Assembly: GCA_963763775.1 (NCBI GenBank)
Contig: CAVXPZ010000001.1
Span: 1,408,001 to 1,472,000, forward strand
DNA from: an uncultured Chloroflexia bacterium
GTDB lineage: Bacteria; Chloroflexota; Limnocylindria; Limnocylindrales; CSP1-4
DNA: 64,000 nucleotides
Direction: 5' to 3'
Made by a program: the position numbers and the translations under genes. The notes under the pieces are model-generated. The model did no database searches. It saw only the letters and a program-made list of their open reading frames with translations, and had not been told where the DNA came from. Shown piece by piece: positions 22,424 through 64,000 of this stretch; the first letter of the stretch is position 1; the number at the start of each line of letters is the position of its first letter.

Positions 22424-23683
22424 GCGATCACGATCGCCTGCCGGCCATCGAGGGGGCTCTCCGGGCGGCCGCGCGCCGGTTCGGGACGCCGGTCTTCGTG
22501 ACGGACCTCGCGACCCTCGACGGGGCCGCGTCCGCCGTCCGGGACGCCTTCCCGGATCCATGGGTCCGGCAGTACTCGGTCAAGGCCAACGACGTGCCGG
22601 CGGTCATCAGCGCCGTCGCGACGCGCGGCTTCGGCGCGAACGTCGTCTCGCGCGGCGAATGGACGCTCGCGCGGCGCGCGGGCATCGCGGACGACCGGAT
22701 CTCGCTCGAGGGCATCGGCAAGACGCCGGCCGACCTGCGCGCGGCGGTGCGGGCCGCGGCGTCCGGCACGCCGCTGCGCTGGGTCGCGATCGAGTCGCCG
22801 GAGGAGGCGGCGGCGCTCGCGAGGCTCGTGCGCCGGGCGGGCGGTGGCCTCCGACTCGACGTCCTGTACCGGCTCAACCCGGACGTCGCACCCGAGACCC
22901 TCGCCGAGTTGGCCGTGGGCGCCGGCACGTCCAAGTTCGGGATGACCGAGACCGAGATCGCCGAGGCCATCGAGGCGAGCGGCGGCCCCGACGGCCCGCT
23001 GCGGCCGCGCGGCATCCATCTGCACGTCGGGTCCCAGCTGGGCGCGGTGGACGCGTGGCGCGACGCCGTGCGTCGCGCGCTCGCGGTCACGGCCCTCTGG
23101 CGGGGCTCGATCGACACGTTCGACACGCTGGACGTCGGCGGCGGGTTCCCGGTCCGTCCGCTCGGCGAGCCGTCGCCGGCGCCGGAGCGATTCGCCCGCG
23201 AGCTGCCGGCGCTCCTCGACGCCATCCCCGCCGATCGGCGGCCGACCCGCCTGGCGATCGAGCCCGGTCGGGCGCTCGTCGCCCGTGCCGGCTGGCTCGT
23301 CGCCCGCGTCCTCCACGCGCGGGAGCGCGCCGGACGCCAGGTCGTCCTCGACGCCGGGATGACCGAGCTGATCCGGCCCGCCCTGTACGGGGCAAGGCAT
23401 CCGGTCCGGGCGCTGGTCGCGGCCCCGTCCCGGGGTCGCCGGGCGGCCCCGGACGGCGACGTCGGCCCCACGCGCGTCGAGGGTCCCGATCTGCGAGTCC
23501 ACCGACTCGCTCGGGGTGCACGACCTGCCGCCGCTCCGTCGCGGCGACCTGGTCGCCATCGCGGACGCCGGCGCCTACGCTGCGTCGCTCGGGTCCGCGT
23601 ACAACGGCCGGCCGCGGCCACCCCAGGTCCTCCTCGCGCCCGACGGCACGCTCATCCTCGGTCGCGCGCGGCGCTCTGTCTGA
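22420..23683 (+). CDS. lysA: diaminopimelate decarboxylase-like PLP enzyme (frameshift near 23487; start uncertain)
   Basis: FGTP, YSVKAN, GIGKT, SKFG, HLHVGSQ, DVGGG, EPGR, RPALYG; GPICESTD/GAY..YN in shifted frame. Confidence 0.8.
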
Positions 23684-23753
23684 GCTCCTGCGCCACGCAC
23701 CGTGGCCTCGAGGGCGCTCGTGGACGCGACCGCGCGTCGGCTATCGTTCGGGC

Positions 23754-25684
23754 ATGGAGACGAGGCAGCGGTTCCGCGAGCGACTGGCCGGACGGCCCGT
23801 TGCTGGGCGACGGCGCGATGGGCACGCTCCTCTTCTCGCGCGGCATCCCCCAGCGTGCGAACCTCGACGAGCTGGTCGCGACACGACCCGACCTCATCGG
23901 CGCCGTCCATCGCGAGTACCTGACGGCCGGCTCGGACATCATCGAGTCCGCCACGTTCGGGGCGAACCGGGCCCGTCTCGCGCCGTTCGGACTCGGCGAC
24001 CAGGCCGGCAAGCTGGCCCGGCGCGGCGCGCAGCTCGCCCGCGAGGCCCGCGACGTCGCCGGCCGCGACGTCCTCGTCGCGGGCTCGGTCGGTCCGCTCG
24101 GCGCCCCCACCCGGGAGCTGGTCCACCTCGACGACGCGACCGTGCGGGCCACGTTCCGCGAGACCATCGACGGCCTGCTCGAAGGCGGCGTGGACCTGTT
24201 CTGGTTCGAGACCTTCTCGTCCGTGGAGCATCTCCGGATCGCGGTCGAGGAAGCGAAGGCCGCGGCCGACCTGCCGATCGTGGCCTTGCTCACGTTCGGC
24301 GAGGAACTGGAGCTGCCCGACGGCACGACGCCCGGCGCCGCGGCCACCGCGCTCGCGTCGCTCGAGGTGGACGTCGTCGGCATCAACTGCGGCGCCGGTC
24401 CACGCGGGTGCCTCGACGCGCTCGTCGCGATGGGCGGCGCCGGCCACGCGATCCTGCCGAACGCCGGCCTGCCGCAGCGCGTCGAAGGACAGTTCGTCTA
24501 CGCCGCCGGGCCCGCCTACCTCGCGGACATGACGCCGCGCTTCGTGGACGCCGGGGCCGCGATCATCGGCGGCTGCTGCGGGACCACGCCCGAGCACATC
24601 GCGGCGATGCGGACCGCCATCGATGCCGTCGCGCACGGCCGCGGGCGCCGGCCCCGCGGCCGGGGCGTCAGAGGCCGTCACGACCTCCACCGTCGTCCGC
24701 CGGCCGGCGACGGTCGCCAGCCACGACGGCCCCGCGACGCCCGATGCGCCGCCGCCCACCGGCCTCCTCCGCGCCCTCCGGGCGGAGCGGTTCGTCATCT
24801 CCGTGGAGATCGACCCGCCGCGGTCGGTCCGCATCGAGCGGACCATCGAGGCCGCCCGGCTCCTCCAGTCGGCCGGCGTCGACGCCGTCAACATCAGCGA
24901 CTCGGCGATGGCCCGCGTCCGGATGGGCGCGATGGCCGTGGCGTTCGGGATCCAGCACGACCTCGACCTGGAGTGCGTCGTCCACACGACGACCCGCGAC
25001 CGGAACCTCATGGCGCTCGAGTCCGAGCTCCTCGGGGCGCACGCCCTCGGCGTCCGCAACATCCTGGCGCTGACCGGCGACCCGCCCCGCGTCGGCGACT
25101 ACCCGTCGGGGACGGGCGTCTGGGACGTCGACTCGATCGGACTCGTCGAGATCCTCGCCCGCCTCAACCGCGGCGAGGACGGGGCCGGCAGCCCGATCGG
25201 CGCGCCGGCCGGGTTCACCATCGCGTGCGCGCTGGACCCGACCGCCGTCGACGCGGCCACCGAATGGGACCGGCTCGAGCGCAAGATCGCCGCGGGCGCG
25301 CACCTCGTGATGACCCAGCCGCTCTATGACGTCGCCCAGGTGGAGGCGATGGACCGGGAGTCCCGGCGACGGTTCGGGCCGGCCGGCTTCCCGATCCCGG
25401 TCCTCCTCGGCGTCCTGCCGTTGCAGAGCACCCGCCACGCCGAGTTCCTCCACAACGAGGTCCCGGGGATCACCATCCCGGACGCGACCCGCGCTGCGCT
25501 GCGCGACGCCGGCGAGCGCGGGGCGGAGGTGGGCCTCGAGCTGACGCTCGACCTGCTCGAGCAGGTGGACTCGCTCGTCGCCGGGACCTACGTCATGCCC
25601 AGCTTCGGCCGCTACGAGCAGGCCGCCGAGCTGGTCCGCCGACTGCGTGCCCGCCACACGCCCGCCCTGGAGGCCACCCGATGA
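23754..25684 (+). CDS. yitJ: bifunctional homocysteine S-methyltransferase / 5,10-methylene-THF reductase (frameshifts near 23790 and 24645)
   Basis: DGAMGT, GINC, PNAGLP, GGCCGTTPEHI; then VEIDPP, RDRNLMAL, LTGDP, TQP, FLHNEVPGI. Confidence 0.9.
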
Positions 25685-52039: not shown

Positions 52040-53665
52040 GTGCCCGATCACCTCGCCGAACCCGTCCCGGCGCATGACGTCGCGACCGCAGAGAGCATCC
52101 GCCGCCGGACCACCCGGGTCCTCGCGGTGCTCTTCGTCGCGCTCATGGGCATCGCGGCGATCGAGGGATTCTGGCCGGGCGGCCCGGATCGCCTTCTGGC
52201 GATCGTGTTCCTCGTCGCGGCGGCCATCGTGCTGCCGATCGTGATGGCGCGCCTCGCCGAGCCGATCCTGCGCGACGTCCAGCGGCTCGAGGACGATCGC
52301 ACGCGCCTCGTCGACATGTACGGACGCGCGCGAGAGGACTCCCTCATCGACGCCCTGACCGGGCTCGGCAACCACCGCGCGTTCCAGGAGGAGCTCAGCC
52401 GGCAGCTCGAACAGGCGACGCGCCACGGCACGACGCTCTCGATCCTGCTCGTCGACGTCGACGACCTCAAGAAGGTCAACGACGAGCGCGGTCATGCCAA
52501 CGGCGACGAGCTGCTCGCCGGTCTCGGGCGGATCACCACGAACGCGATCCGGCGCGGCGACCGCGCCTTCCGTGTGGGCGGCGACGAGTTCGCCGTGATC
52601 CTCCCGAACGCCGACATCGAGACGGGGCTCGTCGTCGCCCGCCGGATGCTCGCGAGCGCCTTGAACGGTGGCTACGCCGGCGGCGGGCCCGTCGAGCCGT
52701 TCTCGCTCTCGATCGGGATCTCGGCGTACCCGACGCCGAGCACCCAGGGCGGCCTGCTCTATCGACATGCCGACGCCGCCTTGTACTGGTGCAAGCGCCA
52801 CGGGCGGACCAATGCGGTCGCGTACGACCCGGGCCGCCACGGCGTCTCACCGGACGAGCGGTCGATCGAGGACGTCTCGGCGGCCCTCGGGACCATCCTC
52901 GCGGAGCGGTCGCTGCGGCCCGTGTACCAGCCGATCTTCTCGATGACGACCGGCGCCGTGATCGGCTACGAAGGGCTCATCCGACCCACCGATGGGTCAC
53001 CGATGGCCGATGCGAGCACGCTGTTCGCGGCCGCCGAACGCGCCGACCGGACCGTCGAGCTCGACATGGCCTGCCTGTCGGTCGTCGCGGACGGCCTCAA
53101 CGGCCTCGACGACGGCGTCTACCTGAGCGTGAACCTGTCGCCGCGCACCCTCGAATCCGACCAGTTCCACCCGATCGAGCTGACCGCGATCTTCGGCCGT
53201 CGCGGGATCAAGCCCGAGCAGCTCGTGATCGAGCTCACCGAGCGCGAGGAGGTCCAGGACCTCCAGCAGCTCCGACGGAATGCCGCCGCCTGCCGGCGCG
53301 CCGGGATGCGCCTCGCCGCCGACGACGTCGGGGCGGGCAACGCGGGGCTTCGCCTCCTGAGCGAGATCCACTTCGACATCGTCAAGGTGGACCTGTCGCT
53401 GGTGCAGGGCGGGATCCTGCATGACCCCTCGCACGGCGTGCTCCGCGCGCTCCAGGAGCTCGCCGCCCGCTGGAGCGCGACGATCATCGCGGAGGGCGTC
53501 GAGACCAGCGAGCAGCTCGCGGTCATCCGCGACCTGGGCATCACTGCCGGTCAGGGCTATCTGCTCGGTCGACCCACCCGCGAGCGCCACGTCGAACCGC
53601 TCGACCTCGACGCCCTGATGCCCGAGGAGCCCTGGGAAGCCGAAGAAGGCTCGCCCGCCGCCTGA
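52040..53665 (+). CDS. membrane-anchored GGDEF-EAL diguanylate cyclase/phosphodiesterase
   Basis: 2 TM; [13 protein letters not shown]-site, RVGGDEF; EGL, ELTE, DDVGAG, KVD, EGVET. Confidence 0.92.
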
Positions 53666-53703
53666 ACGCGGCGTGGCCCGGCCGAGCTCGCCCCGGCCAC
53701 GCC

Positions 53704-55332
53704 TCAGCGCGAGACGCCGGCCTCGTCGACGCCGCACAGGTGGACCGCGACGCCCATCGCGTCGAACATCGCGGCCTTCGCGGCGAGTGCGGTCGGCCGC
53801 CGCCTCGGCACCGTCCGCGTACGCGACCTGGATGTGGTTGGCCCGGTGGCGGGCCATCATCTGGTCGCGCGTGATGCCGTGGAGCACGGCGTGCATGATC
53901 GGCCACTGCGGCGTGGTGGCCTGCCAGCGGCGCTCGGTCTCGGCGGCCGGCAGCTCGACGACCGTGCCCCGACCGATGTCGACGTGGAGCCCGCCGTCCA
54001 TGACGAAGACGCGGCTCCAGACGATCTCGCCGGGCCGGCTGACGCCCTTGATCGTCCCGCCGCCGAGCCCGAAGTACATCGGCGGCTGGCGCTCGCTGAC
54101 GGCGCCGGCATAGCCGCCGACGAGGTGCGCCGGCGGGACGGCGCCGGAGATCTCGAACACCCACACGTAGTCGTCGCCGTACGGCGCGCCCCAGCGCACG
54201 TCGTGGAGCGTGGTCGCCGGGTCGAGACCCAAGCGCCGTCCAGACGCGGTTCGTCACCAGCGCGTCCACCGCGGACCCCTCGTCGACCTCGTTGAAGTGC
54301 GGCAACGGCCGGCCTTCGTACAGCACCGCGGCCGCCGTCGGCGGCGCGGACCGGCGGCCGGTCGGCGTCGTTGAGCAGGCCCTCGGCCAGGTCCGACGCC
54401 GGCGCCATGTCCTTGAGGCCCTGCTGGTACTGGATGCCGATCGCGTCGCAGCCGAACCGGTCCGCGATCCGCACCGCGGCGGTGTACAGCCGCAGCTGGT
54501 CGAGCACCTGGTCCTCGGTCAGCTCGGTGGCGCCGTCCTTCCCGAATCGGAACGTCATGCCGCGGTCGAGCAGCCACCGGTAGGCGGCGCGTGCCTCGCC
54601 GTCGCTCGACCAGCCGCATCTCGGCGACGAGCGCGGACTGGCTGAGCCGCTCCTTGTAGAGGCCCATCGGGTTGAGGTACTCGTCGTCGATGATCGCGTT
54701 GTACATCCCCATGCAGCCTTCGTCGAAGACGCCGAGGATGGCCATACCCGCCGCGAGCTCGCCGGCCAGGCGCCGCCCGAGCGCCGCCGCGTCCGCATCG
54801 CAGGGCGGCGCCGTCCGAGGTCGCGGACGTGCGACGTGTCGTGCTCGATCGTGCCGGTGCGGATCCAGCGGTCCGATCGCGTCGTCCGCGAAGTCGTCGG
54901 TGAGGTCCTCGCTCCAGATCGAGCTGTAGGCGCGGCCCATCTTGGTGAGCGACGCGTTGATGTTGAGCATCCCGACGAGGCCGGGCCACTCGCCGCTCCA
55001 GTTCGCGACGGTCAGGATCGGCCCGCGGTGGCGACGCAGGCCGGCGCAGCACGTGGTGGCTGTACTGCCAGACCGCCTCGGCGACGATCAGCGGCGCGTC
55101 CCGGTCGATCGAGCCGAACACGTCCATGCCCATCCGCTGGCTCGAGATGAACCCGTGGCCGGTCGCCGCGTCGACCGGGATGCCCGCGCCGGACGGTGAC
55201 GCCGTGGCGCGCGAAGGCCGTCTCGACGTGGCCCTCCAGCTCGGCCTGCGCCGGCCAGCCAAGCCGATTGGCGGTCTCGCGCAGGTCGCCGCTGGCGACG
55301 AGGACGGCGTCCCGGATCTGGCGGTCGGTCAC
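53704..55332 (-). CDS. fucose-isomerase-like protein (many frameshifts; possibly pseudogene)
   Basis: Fragments [77 protein letters not shown] across several frames. Confidence 0.7.
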
Positions 55333-55353
55333 GGGTCGCCCTCCTCGATGGTG

Positions 55354-56682
55354 TCAGCGCGCGGCGGTCGCCTTCGTGCGGGCGGCCTTGCGCGCCGCAT
55401 TCGCCGTCGCCTCGGTCTCGACGTCATCGCCCTCACCGGGCGTCGGCGATCCATCGTAGCGCTCGCGCACGATGCGCTCGCTCCAGGTCGACTCGCCGGC
55501 GTAGCGATCGGCGACCATCTGGTCGAAGGCGTGGACCGAGGACTCCTGGTTCGAGTACCGGCCGGCGACCCATGACGACGACCGCGTCCCCTGCTGCTGG
55601 AGCTCGCAGACGTGCCAGTCCTGCTGGTTGGTCAGGTCCCAGAACGCGATCGCGTCCGACGGGTCGAAGCCCGGCATCGCGATGGTCGACGCCTCGAAGA
55701 GCCAGTCGCAGACGATGGTCGTCCGGTCCGGGCCCTGCGGGACGAGGCGGTGGACGAGCAGGTAGTCCGGGTGGATCGAGAGGAAGGCCATCGGCCACAG
55801 GACGAAGTAGTAGATGCGTCGCTCGTCGAGCGGCGTGATGCCGCGCATCGACGGGCGGCCGTTGGCCGAGCCGTGGCCCGCCTCGGCACCGAGCGACATC
55901 GTCTCGGCCGTCTCCACGAGCTCGTTCCAGCCGCCCTGCCATGCCCCGTTCGGGTCGAAGTCGCCCCCGAGGTCGTACGGCGTCAGGCGGTTCAGCTGCG
56001 GATGGACGCCCGGGCAGTGGTAGCACTCGGAGTAGTTCTCGGCGATGAACTTCCAGTTCGCCTTGACGTCGTACTCGACGCGCTTCGCCGAGCGTAGCGA
56101 GGTGAAATCGAACCGGTCCCAGAGGTCGACGAGGTCGCCGAGCTGCGCCGCGAGCGGTGCCGCCTCGGGATCGAGGTTCAGGAAGATGAACCCCTGCCAC
56201 GTCTCGAGCCGGATGGGCGCGAGCCCGAACTGCTCGAACGAGAAGTCCTCGAGGTCCTCGGTGTGCTTGGCCCGGATCAGGGAGCCATCGAGGTCGTAGA
56301 TCCAGGCGTGGTACGGGCACTGGAACCGGACGACCTTGCCGCACGCCTCCTCGGCGACGGCGGTGCCGCGGTGCCGACAGACGTTGAAGAACGCCCGGAG
56401 CACCTGGTCGCGGCCGCGCACGACGATGACGTTCTCGCCGTCGAGCTCGACCAGGGTGTAGGTCCCCGGATCCCGGACCTCCTCCTCGCGGGCGACCATC
56501 ACCCAGTCCTGGCGCAGGACGTGCTGCCGCTCCCAGTCGAAGATCGCCGGGTCGTGATAGGTGCGCTTGGGCAGCAGCGAGGCGGCGCGGTACTCGCGCC
56601 GGACGGTCGCGAGCTCGTCGGCGGTGATCGGCGCAGCGGCGCCCGTGGTGATCGGCGCAGCGGCGCCCGTGGTCGGGGTCAA
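55354..56682 (-). CDS. Rieske non-heme iron oxygenase alpha subunit (choline monooxygenase/GbcA-like group)
   Basis: NVCRHRG..CPYHAW; NWKFIAENYSECYHCPGVHP; QQDWHVCE. Confidence 0.9.
   Translation of the reverse strand: MTPTTGAAAPITTGAAAPITADELATVRREYRAASLLPKRTYHDPAIFDWERQHVLRQDWVMVAREEEVRDPGTYTLVELDGENVIVVRGRDQVLRAFFNVCRHRGTAVAEEACGKVVRFQCPYHAWIYDLDGSLIRAKHTEDLEDFSFEQFGLAPIRLETWQGFIFLNLDPEAAPLAAQLGDLVDLWDRFDFTSLRSAKRVEYDVKANWKFIAENYSECYHCPGVHPQLNRLTPYDLGGDFDPNGAWQGGWNELVETAETMSLGAEAGHGSANGRPSMRGITPLDERRIYYFVLWPMAFLSIHPDYLLVHRLVPQGPDRTTIVCDWLFEASTIAMPGFDPSDAIAFWDLTNQQDWHVCELQQQGTRSSSWVAGRYSNQESSVHAFDQMVADRYAGESTWSERIVRERYDGSPTPGEGDDVETEATANAARKAARTKATAAR
56623..56673. repeat. perfect 24-bp tandem duplication (TTGAAAPI x2) at the Rieske N-terminus
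   Basis: GGTGATCGGCGCAGCGGCGCCCGT twice. Confidence 0.9.
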
Positions 56683-56732
56683 GGGAGGAACCTCCGGTCT
56701 GACCCCCGGCACCGAAGCCGGGGGTCGGTGCT

Positions 56733-57905
56733 TCAGCCGAGCGGGACGGCCTTCTTGGGGTCGAGGAACGGGATCGCCGCCGAGCGCGCCGGGTAGTGGC
56801 CGCCGTCGGGGGCGACGATCTCGAGGGGCGTGCCCGGCTCGGCCAGGCCGATGGGCAGCCATACGTAGCCGATGTTCTTCTTGAGCCGAGGCGACCAGAT
56901 GAGGTCGGTCACGGTGCCCACCGGCTTGCCGTCGTGGAGCGCGTCGCACTTGCGAGAGAGCTCGAACGGGTAGGCGTCTCCCTCGGCCTCGATGCCGACG
57001 AGCTTGCGGTCGACGCCCTTGACCCGGATCTCCTCGAGCGCCGCCTTGCCGATGTAGTCCGCGTCCTGCGTCTCGACGAGCCGCTCGAGGCCCATGACGT
57101 GGAACGGCGTGTCCTTGATGGTGATGTCCGAGCCGTAGTTGAAGATGCCGGCCTCGATGCGGCGCGCCTCGCACGGCGCGATCGGGCGGATCTTGTGCGG
57201 TTTGCCGGCTTCCATGACGCGGTCCCACAGGTCGCCGCCACGGGACGGGTCGCGCAGGTAGATCTCGTAGCCGACCTCGCCGGTCCAGCCGGTTCGGCTG
57301 ATGACGACGGGGATCCCGTCGACCTCGGTCGTGAGCGTCCAGTAGTACTTGATCTCGTCGATGGCCGGGCCGAAGATCGTCCGCATCGTGTCGCGGGACT
57401 TCGGCCCCTGGACCTGGATCGGGTAGACCTCGGGCTCACGGACCGTCACGTCGAGGCCGCTATGGACCGCGACGCCGCGCGCCCACAGGCCCGCGTCGGA
57501 GTCGGCCAGCGCCATCCACCAGCGGTTCTCCTCGATGCGCAGGAGGACCGGGTCGTTGACGATGCCGCCGTCCTCGGCCGTCACCAGCATGTACTTGCCC
57601 TGGCCGACCGCGCACTTGGTCAGGTCGCGCGAGGTCAGCGAGTTCGTGAACGCCGACGCGTCGGGCCCGGTGATCTCGACGATGCGCTCGACCGAGACGT
57701 CCCAGACCGTCACGTCGTTGAGCAGCGCCCAGTACTCCTCGACCGGGTCCGCGTAGTAGCCCGGGAGGTACATGTGGTTGTAGATGTCGTACGCGCTGCA
57801 CCCGGCCTCGAGGGTCTTCTCGAAGAACGGCGACCGCCGATACCACGGCCCGAAATACAGGGTGGACGCGGCTGTGGTCACGGGCGTCGGGTTGGTCTCG
57901 GGCAT
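56733..57905 (-). CDS. GcvT-family THF-dependent demethylase, DmdA-like
   Basis: RRSPF..YNHMYLP..VWDVSVER..NDPV..VQGP..SRTGW..RIEAG; RBS AGGAGG. Confidence 0.85.
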   Translation of the reverse strand: MPETNPTPVTTAASTLYFGPWYRRSPFFEKTLEAGCSAYDIYNHMYLPGYYADPVEEYWALLNDVTVWDVSVERIVEITGPDASAFTNSLTSRDLTKCAVGQGKYMLVTAEDGGIVNDPVLLRIEENRWWMALADSDAGLWARGVAVHSGLDVTVREPEVYPIQVQGPKSRDTMRTIFGPAIDEIKYYWTLTTEVDGIPVVISRTGWTGEVGYEIYLRDPSRGGDLWDRVMEAGKPHKIRPIAPCEARRIEAGIFNYGSDITIKDTPFHVMGLERLVETQDADYIGKAALEEIRVKGVDRKLVGIEAEGDAYPFELSRKCDALHDGKPVGTVTDLIWSPRLKKNIGYVWLPIGLAEPGTPLEIVAPDGGHYPARSAAIPFLDPKKAVPLG

Positions 57906-58051
57906 CGCGGTTCGACCTCCTGGCTGGGTTCCGCGATGGTCGGGCATGGGATTCCTATTGCCTCTCACGTTCCATCAGGCGGACCACCATCGCACCGGAC
58001 GCGACGTCGTCGACCACGGTTCGGGGGCGGCCATGGCCGTTCGCAGCCACC

Positions 58052-58253
58052 CCGGACGGATCTCTGCCAGATGCCAACCAGGCCGGCCAACGGCAACGGA
58101 TCGGTCTCGGATCACGCGGAACGACGCCCGACCTGCGCGACCAAGGCCTCCTTCCCGCGGATCCTGAGCGTGGACTCGATGGCGTCGGCACGGACGCGCC
58201 TCCGGGCCGGCGACTCCGGCTGTCCTGGTTGGCAGATGGCAGGATCCCACCGG
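58052..58253. repeat. about 200-bp element bounded by about 30-bp imperfect inverted repeats
   Basis: CCGG..GGATCTCTGCCAGATGCCAACCAGG ... CCTGGTTGGCAGATGGCAGGATCC..CCGG. Confidence 0.65.
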
Positions 58254-58279
58254 ATCGGCGAAGGATCGGCCTTCAGGGC

Positions 58280-58879
58280 TCAGTCGACCGCGAGGGTGCC
58301 GGGCGCCAGGCCGAGCTCGACCTCGGCCGCGCCGGTCGCCCAGGCCACCACGTCCGCGCGCGAGATCGTCGTGCCGTGGGCGACCACCTGGAGCGCGAGC
58401 CCGTCGAGCAACGACAGGATCCGCCACGCCGCGCCGGCAGGGTCGCTGCACCGGAACATCGCGGTCGCGACGCCGTCCCGCACCGTCCCCTCGAGCAGTC
58501 GCTGCCACTCGAGGTTGAGCGTGCGAGAGATGGCCTGGATCGCCGGCCGCCGCGCGGCCTCCGCCCAGGCGTCGAGCCACAGCTGGAACGCCCAGTCCTT
58601 GTCCGCCGGGGTATACGTCTGGAAGAAGAGGCGCAGCGCCTCGACCGGGTCGCCCGCCTCCCCCATCGACCGCGCCGAGATCGCGAGGTCCTGCCGGGCG
58701 ACGCGCTCGAACGCCGCAGCCAGGACCTCGTCCATGGAGTCGAAGTAGTGGTGGATCAGCCCGCTCGACGTGCCCATCTCGGCCGCGACGTCGCGCACGG
58801 TGGTGGACGCCAGGCCCTTGCGGACCGCGACGTCCAGGGCGGCGCTGACGATCGCGTCGCGTCGTCGGTCTGGGGCCAT
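58280..58879 (-). CDS. TetR family regulator (BetI-like C-terminus)
   Basis: RRDAIVSAAL..TTVRDVAAEMGTSSGLIHHYF; LWLDAWAEA; LLDGLALQ. Confidence 0.9.
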   Translation of the reverse strand: MAPDRRRDAIVSAALDVAVRKGLASTTVRDVAAEMGTSSGLIHHYFDSMDEVLAAAFERVARQDLAISARSMGEAGDPVEALRLFFQTYTPADKDWAFQLWLDAWAEAARRPAIQAISRTLNLEWQRLLEGTVRDGVATAMFRCSDPAGAAWRILSLLDGLALQVVAHGTTISRADVVAWATGAAEVELGLAPGTLAVD

Positions 58880-58926
58880 CCGGGTTCGGGTGTGCGTCGC
58901 GATGCCGGTCACGCCCGCAGGGTAGA

Positions 58927-58961
58927 ACGATATTGCGCACACGTCCAACAACGGCTATCGT
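58927..58961. promoter_or_regulatory. overlapping divergent promoters with imperfect palindrome (putative TetR operator)
   Basis: TTGCGC-N17-TATCGT on +; TATCGT on -; TTGCGCACACGTCCAA at 58933-58948. Confidence 0.5.
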
Positions 58962-59000
58962 GGCCGCTCGGCGTAGCCACCGATGGAGAGGCGCGAGCGC

Positions 59001-60200
59001 ATGATCCGGACGACCCCGTTCCACGAGCGCACCTCGGCGCTCAACAAGACGCATCTGTGGAGTCACTGGTCAGGGACGCTGGCCGCCGACCGGTACCAGA
59101 TGTCGGACAAGTTCGAGTACTTCGCGGTCCGCAACGCGGCGGGGCTGTTCGACTCGAGCCCGCTCTACAAGTACCGCATCACCGGCAAGGACGCCGAGGC
59201 GTTCCTGAGCGGCATCCTCGCCCGGGACATCCGGTCCTGCGAGGTCGGCAACGCCCAGTACACGTGCTGGCTCGACGATCGCGGCTTCGTCATCGAGGAC
59301 GGGGTCATCCTCCATCCGCGGTCGGACGAGTACCTGCTGACGTCGGCCGAGCCGAACTTCGCGTACTTCGCGGACCGCATCGGCCGGATGGCTGTCGGGA
59401 TCGAGGAGGTCAGCTCGGATATCGGCACGCTCGCGCTCCAGGGCCCGCGGTCGCGGGCACTCCTCGCGAGGCTGGTCCCCCAGATGGAGCACATCCCCTA
59501 CTTCGGGGTGGCCCACGGCGAGATCGGCGGGGCGGCGGTCACGGTCAGCCGGACCGGCTACAGCGGCGACCTCGGCTACGAGGTCTGGGTCGACGAGCCG
59601 GACGCCCTCCACGTCTGGGACACGATGTGGGACAGCATGGACGGCTACGGCGTCCTGCCCTTCGGGCTCGCGGCGCTCTACATGCTCCGCATCGAGGCCG
59701 GTCTGCTCCTCCTCGACGCCGACTTCGACTCGAGCCGGTTCGCCTGGAACGACGCCCACCGCTCGACGCCGATCGAGCTGGGCTGGGCGTGGATGTTCCG
59801 GGACCTCAAGAACGACGACCGCGCCTTCATCGGCCGCAAGGCGCTCGAGCACGAGATCGCGAACAAGACCTCGCGCTGGGCGATGCGCGGGCTCATCGTG
59901 GACTGGAAGGATTACGACCGGGTCTACAACGAGGCCGGGCTGATCCCGCCCAAGGACCACACGCCGATCGTCGAGGACTGGATGCTCTACGACGAGGACT
60001 ACGAGCGCGTCGGGTACGCGACGAGCTTCATGTACTCGCCGATGCTCCAGCGCCACATCGCCATCGCGAGGGTCCGACCGGACTTCGCGGCGTTCGGCAC
60101 CAAGGTGGACCTGGAGTTCACCGTCGACCACCATTACGAGCGGGTCGCAGCGCATGTCGCCCGGCTGCCGCTCTACAACCCAGAGCGAAAGACGGCCTGA
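59001..60200 (+). CDS. aminomethyltransferase (GcvT-like folate-binding) family protein
   Basis: RTTPFH..EYFAVRNAAGLFDSSPL..EDG..LQGP..SRTGYSGDLGYE..RIEAG. Confidence 0.9.
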   Translation: MIRTTPFHERTSALNKTHLWSHWSGTLAADRYQMSDKFEYFAVRNAAGLFDSSPLYKYRITGKDAEAFLSGILARDIRSCEVGNAQYTCWLDDRGFVIEDGVILHPRSDEYLLTSAEPNFAYFADRIGRMAVGIEEVSSDIGTLALQGPRSRALLARLVPQMEHIPYFGVAHGEIGGAAVTVSRTGYSGDLGYEVWVDEPDALHVWDTMWDSMDGYGVLPFGLAALYMLRIEAGLLLLDADFDSSRFAWNDAHRSTPIELGWAWMFRDLKNDDRAFIGRKALEHEIANKTSRWAMRGLIVDWKDYDRVYNEAGLIPPKDHTPIVEDWMLYDEDYERVGYATSFMYSPMLQRHIAIARVRPDFAAFGTKVDLEFTVDHHYERVAAHVARLPLYNPERKTA

Positions 60201-60201
60201 G

Positions 60202-61908
60202 ATGACGATGACTGCCCCGAAGACCAAGTCCGCCGGCAAGGCCAAGTCGCCCGCGAAGGGCGCCGGCAAGGCCGACCGGTCCACCTCGACCCGCTCGACG
60301 AAGTCGACGTCGAAGGCCGACCGCACCTACGACGCCATCGTCGTCGGGGGCGGGCACAACGGCCTCGTCAACGGCGCCTATCTCGCCAAGGCCGGGCTCA
60401 AGACGCTGATCATCGAGCGCCGCCACCTCGTCGGTGGTGCGGCGATCACCGAGGAACTCCGGCCCGGCTTCTGGTTCACGACGTTCTCGTACGCCCTGAG
60501 CCTGCTGCGACCCGAGATCATCCACGACCTCGAGCTGACCAAGCACGGCTTCATGCCGCTGCTGATGTCGTCGACGTTCGCGCCCGACGGTGAGGGCGAC
60601 TACCTCCTGATGGGCCAGGACCACGGCGAGAACCTGAAGGAGATCGCTCGGCACTCGAAGCACGATGCCGACGCGTACGACCAGTACAGCCACGACATGG
60701 AGATGGTCTGCCAGGCCATCAAGCCGTTGATGGACATGGTCCCGCCCGACATCTTCAGCGACGACCCCGAGGAGCTGATCGCGCTGGCATCGCTCGGTTC
60801 GCGCTTCAAGAAGCTCGACAAGCGGGTGCTCCACAACGCGGTCCGGCTGCTGACCGGCAGCGCGGCCGACTTCCTCGACGACTACTTCGAGGACCCGCTC
60901 CTCAAGGGGTATCTCGCCTCGTCGAGCATCATCGGCACGAAGGTCGGCCCGCGCTCGCAGGGCTCCGGTCTCGTCCTGCTGTACCACTCGATCGGCGAGC
61001 ACGACGGCGAGTTCGGCGCGTGGGCCTTCCACAAGAAGGGCAACGGCGGCTTCACGCAGGTGCTCAAGCGAGCGGCGGAGTCGTTCGGCGCCGAGATCGT
61101 CCTCGAGTCCCCGGTGGACTCGGTCATCACGAAGGACGGCCGCGCGACCGGCGTCGCGCTCAAGGACGGCACCGAGTACTACGCCGACACCGTCGTCAGC
61201 GCTCTCGACCCGCGCCGCACCTTCCTCGAGCTGGTCAACCCGCGGGAACTCCCCGACGACCTCGTCGAGAACATCCAGCGCTTCCGGTTCCAGGGCACGT
61301 CGTCGAAGGTCAACTTCGCGCTCGACGGGCTGCCGCAGTACGGCGACCTCGACGGCAGCCAGTTCCGCGGCTTCACGAACATCGGGCCGTCGATGGACTA
61401 CCTCGAGCACGCCTACGACGACGCCAAGTACGGCTGGTACAGCCAGAACCCGTACATCGACATGGCGATCCAGTCGACGATCGACGCCGACATGGCGCCT
61501 CCCGGCAAGCACGTCCTGTCGTGCTTCATCCAGTACACGCCGTACCAGCTGCGCGAGAGCGACTGGGACACCGAGAAGGACAACCTCGGCGACACCGTGC
61601 AGCGGACGCTCGAGAAGTTCTTCCCGGGCTTCGGCAACCTGGTCTTGCAGCGCGAGGTGGTCACGCCGCTCCACATCGAGCGGACCGTGGGCCTGAGCGA
61701 GGGCAACATCTTCGCGGGTGAGTTCTTCGCCCCGCAGATGTTCTTCTTCCGCCCGGCCCCCGGCTGGTCGCAGTACCGGACCCCGATCGACGGCTACTAC
61801 CAGTGCGGCTCCGGCACGCACCCCGGTGGTTGCGTGATGGGCGCACCGGGCAAGCTGGCCGCCGGCCAGATCCTCAAGGACCGCGCCAAGGCGAAGCGCC
61901 TCGCCTGA
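60202..61908 (+). CDS. phytoene-desaturase-family FAD oxidoreductase (PYROXD2-like)
   Basis: GGGHNGL..LIIERR..GGAAITEE; APPGKHV; GNIF; GSGTHPGGCVMGAPG. Confidence 0.88.
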   Translation: MTMTAPKTKSAGKAKSPAKGAGKADRSTSTRSTKSTSKADRTYDAIVVGGGHNGLVNGAYLAKAGLKTLIIERRHLVGGAAITEELRPGFWFTTFSYALSLLRPEIIHDLELTKHGFMPLLMSSTFAPDGEGDYLLMGQDHGENLKEIARHSKHDADAYDQYSHDMEMVCQAIKPLMDMVPPDIFSDDPEELIALASLGSRFKKLDKRVLHNAVRLLTGSAADFLDDYFEDPLLKGYLASSSIIGTKVGPRSQGSGLVLLYHSIGEHDGEFGAWAFHKKGNGGFTQVLKRAAESFGAEIVLESPVDSVITKDGRATGVALKDGTEYYADTVVSALDPRRTFLELVNPRELPDDLVENIQRFRFQGTSSKVNFALDGLPQYGDLDGSQFRGFTNIGPSMDYLEHAYDDAKYGWYSQNPYIDMAIQSTIDADMAPPGKHVLSCFIQYTPYQLRESDWDTEKDNLGDTVQRTLEKFFPGFGNLVLQREVVTPLHIERTVGLSEGNIFAGEFFAPQMFFFRPAPGWSQYRTPIDGYYQCGSGTHPGGCVMGAPGKLAAGQILKDRAKAKRLA

Positions 61909-61933
61909 GCGTCCCGTCGAGGCCGGACACAGT

Positions 61934-61966
61934 TCGAGGGCGGCTCGCCAGGCGAGCCGCCCTCGA
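61934..61966. terminator. bidirectional hairpin between convergent genes
   Basis: TCGAGGGCGGCTCGCC-A-GGCGAGCCGCCCTCGA. Confidence 0.7.
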
Positions 61967-61983
61967 TGCTCCCGCGGAACGGG

Positions 61984-62481
61984 CTACTTGATGGGCTCGC
62001 CGTCGGCCCCGACGACGAACCAGATCCCACCGACCCCCTGGCCGTTGGTATCACCGGCGGCCTTGTCGGCGGCGAAGAAGTAGAGCGGGTACTCGCCGGC
62101 CTTGACCTGGTTCCCGCCGTCGGTGCGGGCCACGGTCGCGACCGCGGCGGTGACGCCGTCACCCGCTGACGCCGACCCGGTCACCGTGTAGGCGGGCCAG
62201 TTCGTCGCGCAGTCCTTGTAGCAGGACGGCGTGCCGCCCTGGTCCTTCATGAACATGTAGAGCGTCTTGCCGCTCGGGTCCGTGAGGATCTTGCCGAGCG
62301 CCGAGTCCGCGAGGACCACGGTCGCGCCGGTCGCCGGGGCCGCACTCGGCGCCGCGGCCGACGGGGCTGCCGCGCTGGGGGCCGCCGCGGACGGGGCTGT
62401 GGTCGCGCCCGAGCTCGAGCAGGCGGCGATGACGGCCGTCAGGCCGATGGCGAGGGCGATGAGTCGTGCGTGTGTCCGCAT
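61984..62481 (-). CDS. lipoprotein with Yx(FWY)xxD repeats (COG4315)
   Basis: Lipobox IAAC; GKTLYMFMKD..CYKDCATNWP..PLYFFAAD..NGQGVGGIW. Confidence 0.88.
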   Translation of the reverse strand: MRTHARLIALAIGLTAVIAACSSSGATTAPSAAAPSAAAPSAAAPSAAPATGATVVLADSALGKILTDPSGKTLYMFMKDQGGTPSCYKDCATNWPAYTVTGSASAGDGVTAAVATVARTDGGNQVKAGEYPLYFFAADKAAGDTNGQGVGGIWFVVGADGEPIK

Positions 62482-62570
62482 CCCGATGGTTCCTCCTGGT
62501 GGTTGGCCGTCCCACCCCCGACTACGCTCGGTCGGGTCCCATCGGTTTCCGGCGGTCGCGCGGACCGCGC

Positions 62571-64000
62571 TCAGTCGAGCGTGACGCGCTCGTGCCAGTG
62601 CGGGACGTGCGTCGCGAACCCGAGGTCGCGCACCTTCGGCTCCAGGGCGATCTGCGCCTCGGGATCGCCGTGGACGAGGAACACGCGGCGCGGATAGCCG
62701 GCGTCACCGGGGTGCTTGCCCGCCGAGAACGAACGCAGCCAGTCGAGCAGCTCGCTCTCGTCGGCGTGCGCCGAGAACCCGCTGATCGAGCGGATCTGGC
62801 AGCGAACGGCGCGAGCCTGGCCGTCGAGCTTCACCGTCTTCGCGCCGGCCTGGAGGTGCGAGCCGAGGGTCCCCTCCCCCTGGTAGCCGACGAAGAGGAT
62901 CGTGGCCGCCGGGTCGTCGATGAGGTTGCGCAGATGGCCGACGACGCGGCCGCCGGTCAGCATCCCGTTCGAGGCCACGATCATGTACGGCCGCGGCGCC
63001 CGGGCGATCGCCTGCGATTCCTTCACGTTCTGCGTGATGATCTGGTTCGGGTAGTCGAGCGGCGTCGCCCCGTCCCGCAGGAGCTTCGCGGTCTCCTCGT
63101 CGTAGTAGTCCGGGTGGTGCCGGTAGATGTCGGAGGCCTTCGAGGCCATCGGCGAGTCGAGGTAGAGCGGGAGCAGCGGGATCTCGCCGCGCTCGATGAG
63201 CCGGTCGAGTTCCCAGACCACCTCCTGCGTCCGCCCGATCGCGAACGAGGGCACCAGCAGCACGCCGTCCGCGGCCGCGACCATCCGGATCGTCTCGGCG
63301 AGGACGCGGATCGACTCGGCCTCGGGCTCGTGCTCGCGTCCGCCGTACGTGGACTCGACGAGGACGTAGTCCGCGGCCGGCATCGGCGTCGGATCGCGCA
63401 GGATCGGGGTCCCCGGGCGACCGAGATCCCCGGAGAACACGATGACCCGCTCCTCCCCGCCGGGCTGGTCCACGACTCGCAGCCGGATGATCGCCGAGCC
63501 CAGGATGTGACCGGCGTCCACGAACAGCGCGTGGATCCCGGGGGCGACCTCGACCTCCTCGCCATAGCCGACGGGCCGGAACGACGCGAGCGACGCCTCG
63601 GCGTCCTTGGCCGTGTACAACGGCTCGTCGAGGTCGATCTGGAGCTCCGGGGGTTGGGCGCGCAGGTCTGCCTCGGGATCGCGCGGCCAGGTGGCGGGCG
63701 CGCTCGGATCGCGGGCCGGCTCCACGGTCGTCTCGACGTGCTGGCCGCCCTCGGCGTCACCCTCCGCGGCCAGCGCGATCGCCGCGGCGTACTCGTCGGC
63801 CTCCTTGCGGTCGTCGGCGGCGACCTGGTCCGGATGCCGCTTCTCCCAGCGGGCCTCGCGCTTCGCGAACTCCTCGTGGAGCTTGCCCGAGTCCAGGAGC
63901 ACCAACCCCGCGAGTTCGATCGTGCCGGCCGTCGCGTGGATCGGCCCGGTGTAGCCAGCCTTCACGAGCAGCGGCAACAGCCCGCAGTGGTCCAGGTGCG
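62571..64000 (-). CDS. MBL-fold beta-CASP RNase-like hydrolase (5' end beyond window)
   Basis: HLDHCG at the window edge; AGHILGS, FSGDLG, ESTYG, PSFAIGRTQE, FSAHAD, LVHGD. Confidence 0.92.
   Translation of the reverse strand, partial: HLDHCGLLPLLVKAGYTGPIHATAGTIELAGLVLLDSGKLHEEFAKREARWEKRHPDQVAADDRKEADEYAAAIALAAEGDAEGGQHVETTVEPARDPSAPATWPRDPEADLRAQPPELQIDLDEPLYTAKDAEASLASFRPVGYGEEVEVAPGIHALFVDAGHILGSAIIRLRVVDQPGGEERVIVFSGDLGRPGTPILRDPTPMPAADYVLVESTYGGREHEPEAESIRVLAETIRMVAAADGVLLVPSFAIGRTQEVVWELDRLIERGEIPLLPLYLDSPMASKASDIYRHHPDYYDEETAKLLRDGATPLDYPNQIITQNVKESQAIARAPRPYMIVASNGMLTGGRVVGHLRNLIDDPAATILFVGYQGEGTLGSHLQAGAKTVKLDGQARAVRCQIRSISGFSAHADESELLDWLRSFSAGKHPGDAGYPRRVFLVHGDPEAQIALEPKVRDLGFATHVPHWHERVTLD

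Follow-up and report, generated by a model that had tools for sequence, protein, structure and literature searches.

Two separable gene units with a putative role in N-demethylation adjoin in an uncultured Limnocylindrales genome

Introduction

Do five neighbouring genes for a Rieske oxygenase, two folate-binding T-proteins, a TetR-family regulator and a PYROXD2-like flavoprotein make up one pathway, or have separate systems come to lie side by side? The question is posed by positions 55354-61908 of a 64,000-nt stretch of DNA from an uncultured Chloroflexia bacterium (hereafter the window; C1:1408001-1472000 of the source genome G000, where C1 and C2 denote contigs of that genome). The source assembly comprises 3.3 Mb in 4 contigs and is 87% complete. 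Many bacteria live on betaines and methylamines by removing N-methyl groups in folate-linked reactions, and the original prediction, made from the sequence alone, assigned all five genes to one co-regulated pathway around the TetR protein. On balance, we consider the locus to be a juxtaposition of two independently inherited, putative N-demethylation units that are neighbours by chance in this genome: unit A, consisting of the T-protein gene gcvT1 and the Rieske gene, and unit B, consisting of tetR, the second T-protein gene gcvT2 and the gene of the flavin adenine dinucleotide (FAD) protein.

Results

The base composition of the window is ~71% G+C, and many long open reading frames (ORFs) in it are spurious for this reason. 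Gene calling based on the G+C content of third codon positions (GC3) was unreliable here, with antisense frames scoring high too; the five genes were picked out by Pfam, NCBIfam and start-codon analysis. All of them were confirmed in position and in family, namely a Rieske oxygenase, two T-proteins, a TetR protein with a BetI-type domain and a PYROXD2-like flavoprotein. The genes do adjoin one another, but their description as five contiguous genes conceals a non-coding gap of 375 bp between tetR and gcvT1 (57906-58279) and two orientations: tetR, gcvT1 and the Rieske gene lie on the minus strand, gcvT2 and the FAD gene on the plus strand. As predicted, neither gcvH nor gcvP is encoded within the window; the true gcvT-gcvH-gcvP set, whose gcvT is a third T-protein gene, was found outside it at C1:228381-232395.

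The arrangement was compared in 36 congeneric genomes. Most relatives are metagenome-assembled genomes (MAGs), like the source genome, with frameshifts in some, and genus-level genomes are kin, so that the counts among congeners are not independent. GcvT1 was present in 20 of the 36 and the Rieske protein in 18, and the two genes were adjacent in every congener that had both (15/15, or 16/16 counting the source genome). Long orthologues of the FAD protein (74-92% identity) occurred in 29 of the 36, with fragments in 3 more. Twenty of these FAD loci were fetched with ~9 kb on either side. In all 20, the FAD gene was immediately preceded by gcvT2 in the same orientation; a divergent TetR gene was present in 11, a Lipoprotein_15 gene followed the FAD gene in 13, and the other surroundings differed and were unrelated. 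GcvT1 adjoined the FAD unit at four of the 20 loci, those at the RNase J locus; a Rieske gene was near the FAD gene at none. The 16 congeners with both the Rieske and the FAD gene carried them on separate contigs or 0.3-1.5 Mb apart, five assemblies being too fragmented to judge. At least 13 congeners had the FAD gene without the Rieske gene, and 2 had the reverse. Among the genus genomes the two genes were neighbours only in the source genome. The gcvT1-Rieske pair and the tetR/gcvT2-FAD group are separate units in this genus, gained and lost independently.

A 26-nt operator-like element, TAGAACGATATTGCGCACACGTCCAA, is located in the tetR/gcvT2 intergenic region (58923-58948). It was nearly invariant in 12 of 12 aligned intergenic regions (the window and 11 further loci), had no second copy in the 3.3-Mb genome when up to 6 mismatches were allowed, and was not found upstream of gcvT1. 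A single TetR-controlled pathway of all five genes, acting on one methylated osmolyte or amino acid, is unlikely in view of this single element and of the distances between the Rieske and FAD genes in congeners (none within ~9 kb at 20 loci), and a pathway co-regulated around TetR was not borne out. The physical contiguity of the five genes speaks for it, and so does the placement of tetR ahead of gcvT1-Rieske on one strand: no terminator-like site intervenes, so that read-through is possible. Side-by-side occurrence of the Rieske and FAD genes was not conserved within the genus, whereas the families recurred together elsewhere: four alphaproteobacterial plasmids combine a TetR protein, two FAD proteins, an aminomethyltransferase, a GbcA-like Rieske protein and an aminotransferase, three of them with a PotF-type transporter. 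The Rieske proteins of these plasmids are only 30-33% identical to that of the window. In addition, 6 of the 74 Limnocylindria loci described below have a FAD homologue (37-39% identity) just ahead of Rieske genes. The recurrence on plasmids can reasonably be read as a sign of a common role in methyl-amine catabolism, though not of a single TetR-run pathway.

The Rieske gene (55354-56682, minus strand) encodes a non-haem-iron oxygenase alpha subunit of 442 aa (Pfam Rieske 4.7e-18, Ring_hydroxyl_A 1.3e-47). It starts at TTG 56682, preceded by GGAGG; the 624-aa Rieske ORF in the ORF list was rejected as an overextension. Comparison with GbcA, CntA, Stc2, DmdA and LigM rests on hidden Markov model and PDB matches. 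The best NCBIfam match of the Rieske protein was GbcA (NF058607), at 203 bits below the cut-off of 670, and its best PDB matches were Stc2 (3vca/4qup), a Ruegeria homologue (3n0q) and CntA (6y8j), with E values of 4e-45 to 3.5e-43 and strong alignment confined to residues 37-237. The cluster motif CRHRG...CPYHAW and ENYSECYHCPGVHP aligned with the same motifs of 3vca, 3n0q and 6y8j, and CxH...CxxH and the mononuclear-iron motif ECYHCxxxHP, which mark the GbcA/Stc2/CntA group, were both present. Judged by these matches, the protein is nearest to that quaternary-amine group. A homologue search recovered close relatives only (68-95% identity). At the N-terminus (56590-56682), the peptide TTGAAAPIT occurs twice in tandem, ahead of the conserved part that begins at about residue 19.

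The gcvT1 gene (56733-57905, minus strand) ends 50 nt upstream of the Rieske gene and encodes a DmdA-like folate-binding T-protein paralogue of 390 aa (GCV_T 4.8e-43, GCV_T_C 4.2e-14). It scored 311.6 bits against the DmdA model NF009133 (cut-off 410) and 132.7 and 173.9 bits against the GcvT models TIGR00528 and NF001567 (cut-offs 235.85 and 300), missing all three. Its best PDB match was Pelagibacter DmdA (3tfh, 3.6e-65), to which it is about one-third identical over 328 residues by our own count; the folate part of trimethylamine N-oxide (TMAO) demethylase was also among its best relatives. In one relative (L039:8375-11284), GcvT1 and the Rieske protein share a single 969-aa frame with GCV_T, GCV_T_C, Rieske and Ring_hydroxyl_A domains, either as a natural fusion or because a stop codon was lost by sequencing error.

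A survey of Rieske orthologues yielded a best set of 74 loci (50-78% identity, many truncated by contig ends), nearly all from MAGs labelled Candidatus Limnocylindrales, Chloroflexia or Chloroflexota. By these labels the source is a Chloroflexota genome of high G+C content and not an actinobacterial one. RNase J lay upstream on the same strand in 59 of the 74, in 18 the gene immediately before the Rieske gene encoded a GcvT1 orthologue (identity 70% or more), and two Rieske genes were present in 8; no locus had TetR or, at 35% identity or more, a GcvT2. Pfam analysis of six loci placed an MttB-family gene ahead of gcvT1 in 3 and a PotD-type ABC importer past the Rieske gene in 4. The fuller form of the locus comprises RNase J, a 293-aa gene, an MttB-family gene, gcvT1 and the Rieske gene, facing a PotD-type ABC importer, with either GGDEF/EAL or an Exo_endo_phos gene and DUF5612 beyond the importer. 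The 293-aa gene before mttB (L001, L015, L020) had no Pfam or NCBIfam match, and the importer's binding protein matched PotD/PotF structures at 1e-46. The MttB homologue of the relatives is of the non-pyrrolysine type and reached 281 bits against the model of the pyrrolysine trimethylamine methyltransferase (cut-off 525).

The window retains the flanks DUF5612, Exo_endo_phos, GGDEF/EAL and RNase J without the importer and mttB. An MttB orthologue (81% identity) is encoded on contig C2 of the same genome, which carries an MttB-family gene at C2:17474-18994. No orthologous importer was found in the source genome, and tblastn detected no importer remnants in the window. Part of the tetR-gcvT1 gap (57931-57973) is similar to the region around the mttB start in relatives: blastn matched L015:7094-7136, L020, L065 and L005 at 84-93% over 40-43 nt, mttB starting at L015:7099, and also L105, L110 and L111 over 72-79 nt. 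We infer that these 43 nt upstream of gcvT1 are the deletion scar of mttB, and that the gcvT1-Rieske pair is probably the remainder of a locus conserved in Limnocylindria. The gap gave no Rfam match and no promoter-like or terminator-like site. It also holds a 25-nt inverted repeat (58064-58088/58218-58242, 84% complementary, arms 129 nt apart).

Directly after the Rieske gene and before the GGDEF gene lies a decayed gene resembling L-fucose isomerase (53724-55317, minus strand; weak Fucose_iso_N1/C matches). It is 81% identical at the nucleotide level to L030:11377-12960, with tblastx pieces in at least 3 frames; an intact 478-aa counterpart (L030:11377-12813) directly follows the Rieske gene of L030. 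The window copy is either a pseudogene or a product of assembly errors.

These neighbours bear on the reading in which GcvT1 is a stand-alone demethylase of the DmdA type for dimethylsulfoniopropionate (DMSP) or another sulfonium compound, the adjacency of the Rieske gene being devoid of mechanistic meaning. A passage of one article indicates that DmdA works without a partner (PMC5395565), GcvT1 persists without the Rieske protein in 5 congeners, and DmdA is the best NCBIfam and PDB match. We nevertheless hold this reading to be quite improbable: the score lies below the equivalog cut-off, gcvT1 and the Rieske gene adjoin in every genus genome with both, and the neighbours in relatives are a homologue of MttB-family quaternary-amine methyltransferases and a polyamine-type importer, not dmdBCD. 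The nearest relatives, moreover, come from Limnocylindrales and Chloroflexia MAGs, in whose habitats DMSP is expected to be scarce.

Unit B begins with tetR (58280-58879, minus strand), divergent from gcvT2. Its 199-aa product has TetR_N (7.5e-13) and BetI-type TetR_C_6 (2.4e-16) domains; against the BetI equivalog TIGR03384 it reached 65.1 bits, below the cut-off of 201.3, and the choline sensing of BetI invoked in the original prediction is not transferable to it. The gcvT2 gene (59001-60200, plus strand) encodes a T-protein paralogue of 399 aa (GCV_T 1.2e-54). ATG 59001 is favoured as its start because the orthologues have 399 aa. The best NCBIfam match of GcvT2 was the C-terminal part of Tdm (224 bits, cut-off 1100), and its scores against TIGR00528 and NF001567 (148.3 and 186.4 bits) and DmdA (106 bits) missed the cut-offs given above. 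It also matched the folate domains of dimethylglycine dehydrogenase/oxidase and sarcosine oxidase, and its homologue search recovered close relatives only (85-92% identity).

The FAD gene (60202-61908, plus strand) is separated from the gcvT2 stop by 1 nt and encodes a PYROXD2/CrtI-like oxidoreductase of 568 aa (Amino_oxidase 9.6e-16, NAD_binding_8 1.2e-08). The protein passes the gathering score of Pfam PF01593 (58.5 versus 19.8 bits), a weak DAO match contains no stretch that passes alone, and neither an iron-sulfur nor a ferredoxin-docking domain was detected. The nearest ESM Atlas clusters (cosine 0.99) bear the automatic names PYROXD2 or phytoene desaturase family, and 2170 representative clusters belong to the family at E <= 1e-30. 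The AlphaFold model had a predicted local distance difference test (pLDDT) value of 92.4. In a Foldseek search with it, CrtI-type desaturases came first, followed by NicA2, 6-hydroxynicotine oxidase, MAO-N and putrescine oxidase, with a probability of 1.00 to the CrtI-type proteins, NicA2, MAO-N and putrescine oxidase. Residues 1-34 (60202-60303) form a K/S-rich tail, predicted to be disordered (pLDDT ~40), which is kept in the closest orthologues; distant family members lack it and start near residue 41.

The pairing of FAD and T-protein genes extends beyond orthologues. Tandem FAD paralogues (~50% and ~37% identity) were found in the genus and in a sister genus of ~1.1-Mb genomes, and a GcvT2-like gene (36-39% identity), hidden in GC3-based calls and recovered by tblastn, stood alongside in 6 of 6 such loci (L125-L130, from G005, G016, G023, G028, G037 and G040, which include ~1.1-Mb genomes). 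These tandem pairs with their divergent T-protein gene lie among housekeeping genes (TrpRS, AI-2E transporter, SurE, homoserine dehydrogenase). In the source genome, at its 87% completeness, tblastn found no tandem pair.

A tblastn search with the FAD protein against 72,556 plasmids gave 38 records, of which ten were opened. In all five opened records with at least 42% identity (Fuscovulum, Shinella zoogloeoides, Parasedimentitalea, Rhizobium sp. SL42 and Shinella sumterensis), an aminomethyltransferase-family gene abutted the FAD gene or genes, and four of the five also had a divergent TetR gene, a second FAD paralogue, a class-III aminotransferase and one or two Rieske genes. The Fuscovulum, S. 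zoogloeoides and Rhizobium sp. SL42 clusters had a complete polyamine-type ABC transporter, the binding protein in Fuscovulum resembling PotF (316 bits, cut-off 636); of the transporter in Parasedimentitalea, only one gene, for a solute-binding protein, was visible where the examined stretch ends. GbcA was the best match for all seven Rieske proteins of these clusters (125-164 bits). No T-protein was found in the five opened records with at most 39% identity, one of which (Sphingobium) has a Rieske gene next to the FAD homologue. Beside the FAD-FAD-T-protein block of S. zoogloeoides (L133) and Parasedimentitalea (L134) lies a gene for a ~680-aa protein; of the two copies, only that of Shinella was scanned, and it is an Fe-S flavoprotein of the OYE/FadH type (mycofactocin-system OYE_2, 492 bits, cut-off 793). 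We take trimethylamine dehydrogenase and N-methylproline demethylase to share this type, and the protein is possibly a further N-demethylase in the fuller clusters. Judged from gene content, the association of the families is real at the family level: the recurrence on plasmids, together with the FAD-Rieske neighbours in 6 of 74 loci, suggests that these enzyme types have been recruited together repeatedly.

The T-proteins were placed in a maximum-likelihood tree of 22 sequences, none of them a named reference. The GcvT2 orthologues, the GcvT2-like proteins and four proteins of the alphaproteobacterial clusters formed one clade (97/97 support), which excluded canonical GcvT, GcvT1, DMGDH-like fused copies and the Shinella sumterensis 'gcvT' (H8), the sole flavoprotein-linked T-protein outside it. 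GcvT1 also fell outside the canonical GcvT branch. Since both T-proteins missed the GcvT cut-offs, lie outside the GcvT branch and coexist with a true gcvTHP set elsewhere, neither is the GcvT of glycine cleavage; the grouping with true GcvT that would have spoken against the original prediction was not seen.

We give almost no credence to the reading that dispenses with amine chemistry and takes the FAD protein for a desaturase or ketolase of carotenoids or isoprenoids and GcvT2 for a spare glycine-cleavage T-protein. CrtO (NF045689) is the best NCBIfam match of the FAD protein, yet at 258 bits it lies far below the cut-off of 1000, as does the crtI family (TIGR02734; 88 bits, cut-off 238.1). 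The top Foldseek matches, 4rep and 4dgk, are carotenoid desaturases; there are no carotenoid genes nearby, and a T-protein from a separate clade accompanies the FAD gene throughout. The plasmid contexts, with aminotransferase, PotF-type binding protein and GbcA-like Rieske protein, are amine-related.

The clusters also bear on the notion that the PYROXD2-like flavoprotein supplies electrons to reductase-less GbcA-like Rieske oxygenases, one N-methyl dehydrogenation paying for one hydroxylation. No classical reductase gene lies beside the Rieske gene in the window, the six annotated Limnocylindria loci or the Fuscovulum cluster, and FAD homologues stand directly upstream of the Rieske gene, without a T-protein, in 6 of 74 loci and in Sphingobium. 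This idea is very unlikely given that the FAD protein has no detected iron-sulfur or ferredoxin-docking domain, that most genus genomes with the FAD gene have no Rieske gene or have it far away, and that an FNR-type reductase with a 2Fe-2S domain is encoded elsewhere in the genome. We know of no precedent for a Rieske scheme powered by a flavoprotein.

The proposed partnership of the FAD protein and GcvT2 was examined by complex prediction. For the pair FAD(41-568) and GcvT2, three runs scored 0.59, 0.17 and 0.64 (median 0.59), against 0.01 for the best control; at least 45% of contacts were common to the runs, and the partner had a pLDDT of at least 88. Of 80 solved complexes, 58 reached the mark for this score, as did 2 of 110 mismatched pairs; with a score of 0.60 or less, however, the mark was reached by only 7 of the 80 and by both mismatches. 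The prediction lends weak support to a FAD-GcvT2 complex.

Downstream of unit B and convergent with the FAD gene lies a Lipoprotein_15 (secreted repeat) gene (61984-62481, minus strand; PF03640, 2.1e-26). An Rfam scan of 53000-62600 at E <= 1 found no riboswitch and only two sub-threshold small RNA matches. A scan of 55200-62100 found no promoter-like site and one terminator-like site, within gcvT2; shuffled sequences gave as many. Among public sequencing runs, the best shared at most 0.11 of the sampled words. Contigs from four soil RNA libraries mapped to the coding parts of four genes, mostly 88-95% alike and short; they derive from genes of relatives (X16 and X17 look like one data set), leave 57982-58200 uncovered and give no evidence of transcription or operon structure. 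The source genome has four MttB-family genes and at least 7 genes with T-protein domains, and by these numbers seems specialised in the use of methylated amines. The original prediction further suggested that the C1 units may feed a YitJ enzyme. Such genes do exist at 23.8-25.7 kb, 30 kb away, and no result links them to the locus. In that region (22498-25684, plus strand), Orn/Arg decarboxylase and homocysteine S-methyltransferase domains share one frame and an MTHFR domain lies in another (24623-25684); the region may be frameshifted or consist of overlapping genes.

Discussion

The best reading of the window is that of two cooperating but separable steps of methyl-amine catabolism, apparently at a variable locus and not in a fixed operon. 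The five-gene arrangement is an accident of one genome and not in itself important. As for the chemistry, the Rieske enzyme would hydroxylate a quaternary or tertiary amine at an N-methyl (or N-alkyl) carbon with the aid of a reductase encoded elsewhere, and GcvT1 would take the methyl or hydroxymethyl unit onto tetrahydrofolate or act like DmdA on an onium substrate. In unit B, the PYROXD2-like flavoprotein would dehydrogenate an N-methyl amine to the iminium, and GcvT2, probably bound to it, would transfer the methylene to tetrahydrofolate. The gcvT2-FAD pair may then be a split analogue, with an amine-oxidase fold, of dimethylglycine dehydrogenase or oxidase. Unit B appears self-contained and is probably repressed by TetR. 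Together, units A and B could remove successive methyl groups from one poly-N-methylated amine. Our guess at the substrate is a methylated di- or polyamine or an omega-amino compound, because the fuller clusters carry PotD/F-type importers and (omega-)aminotransferases.

Several observations weigh against this picture. Each proposed reaction is drawn from family resemblance, and because the GbcA, DmdA, GcvT, BetI and CrtI-family cut-offs were all missed, substrates cannot be carried over from the named families. A GbcB/CntB-type reductase gene typically adjoins such Rieske oxygenase genes; none was found in the window, and the sole ORF of the source genome with NAD_binding_1 (FNR-type) and Fer2 (2Fe-2S) domains (C1:1566636-1567322) lies ~100 kb off. 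The closest solved folds to the FAD protein are carotenoid desaturases and not amine oxidases, and the complex score is weak, with one of three runs far below the others. GcvT1 occurs without the Rieske protein in 5 congeners and the Rieske protein without GcvT1 in 3, and in the sister genus the Rieske protein (~52% identity) is present in 20 of 24 genomes and GcvT1 in none; from these genomes, the gcvT1-Rieske pair is not obligatory. With importer and mttB gone from the locus and the neighbouring gene decayed, unit A may be on its way to loss. Given an assembly that is 87% complete, the apparently missing partners may also be merely unassembled.

A wider proposal can be made, which we regard as possible but doubtful. 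PYROXD2-family flavoproteins and their dedicated clade of stand-alone T-proteins may be unrecognised, widespread tetrahydrofolate-coupled dehydrogenases of N-methyl amines in Chloroflexota (including the 1.1-Mb genomes) and Alphaproteobacteria, acting downstream of reductase-less GbcA-like Rieske oxygenases in the fuller clusters, with a methylated di- or polyamine as substrate. Carried over to animals, the proposal would make PYROXD2 an N-demethylase. The pairing of the PYROXD2-type flavoprotein with a T-protein was constant in all orthologous loci examined, and its carriers belong to two phyla and include abundant lineages of soil and fresh water. If the chemistry holds, it would represent a new enzyme class in the methylated-amine cycle, give a large family a testable function and supply a specific hypothesis on human PYROXD2, the locus of which is associated with urinary trimethylamine. 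LSD1, an N-demethylase with the amine-oxidase fold, has been reported to bind tetrahydrofolate. No description of the PYROXD2-like/T-protein pair or of the five-gene cluster was found in the literature searched, which did not cover subscription journals, and among the matches listed, no enzyme activity for PYROXD2 was reported from 2019 on.

The name of the human protein is borne by the nearest ESM Atlas clusters of the FAD protein, as an automatic label only. A passage on human PYROXD2 describes its function as unclear (PMC8777681). The HPS1/PYROXD2 locus is given, in part of another study, as a metabolite quantitative trait locus for trimethylamine and dimethylamine, with HPS1 favoured as the causal gene (PMC9286311). 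An N-demethylase activity of animal PYROXD2 would explain this association.

Among bacterial systems, GbcA-GbcB, Stc2 and CntA-CntB are the best NCBIfam and PDB relatives of the window Rieske protein and have the CxH...CxxH and ExxxECYHCxxxHP motifs in common with it. The window protein differs from them in its low score against the GbcA model, in the absence of an adjacent reductase and in having a T-protein as upstream partner; to our knowledge, the described systems have none. DmdA, the best named relative of GcvT1, is itself presented as an adapted T-protein (PMC5395565). GcvT1 stays below its cut-off, its relatives are environmental Chloroflexota MAGs and not marine Alphaproteobacteria, and its gene is coupled to the Rieske gene and, in relatives, to an MttB homologue. 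The latter recalls MtgBCD, the cobalamin-dependent glycine betaine methyltransferase of aerobic marine bacteria, in that relatives of the locus carry an MttB-family gene directly before gcvT1; at the window locus it is absent, its orthologue lying on contig C2. MttB-family enzymes demethylate quaternary amines (PMC12478193).

For the second step of the Ruegeria TMAO pathway, part of a preprint lists a stand-alone aminomethyltransferase-family protein with dmmA, dmmC and an oxidoreductase (bioRxiv 10.64898/2026.06.26.734754). A T-protein-like module is likewise present in Tdm, whose C-terminal part alone is the best NCBIfam match of GcvT2 (224 versus 1100 bits). The Ruegeria step is presumably that of dimethylamine monooxygenase, with the aminomethyltransferase-family protein as its DmmD. 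Compared with Tdm and DmmD, the partner enzymes of gcvT2 belong to other families. The logic proposed for unit B, a flavin that oxidises N-CH3 and a T-protein fold that passes the C1 unit to tetrahydrofolate, would be the same as in dimethylglycine dehydrogenase/oxidase and heterotetrameric sarcosine oxidase. In the known flavin systems, a DAO-type flavoprotein is fused to the folate domain; the window has two polypeptides, a CrtI/amine-oxidase fold in place of the DAO fold, and a T-protein clade of its own. Flavoprotein family and T-protein clade both differ from those of the systems compared here, and their pairing seems previously undescribed.

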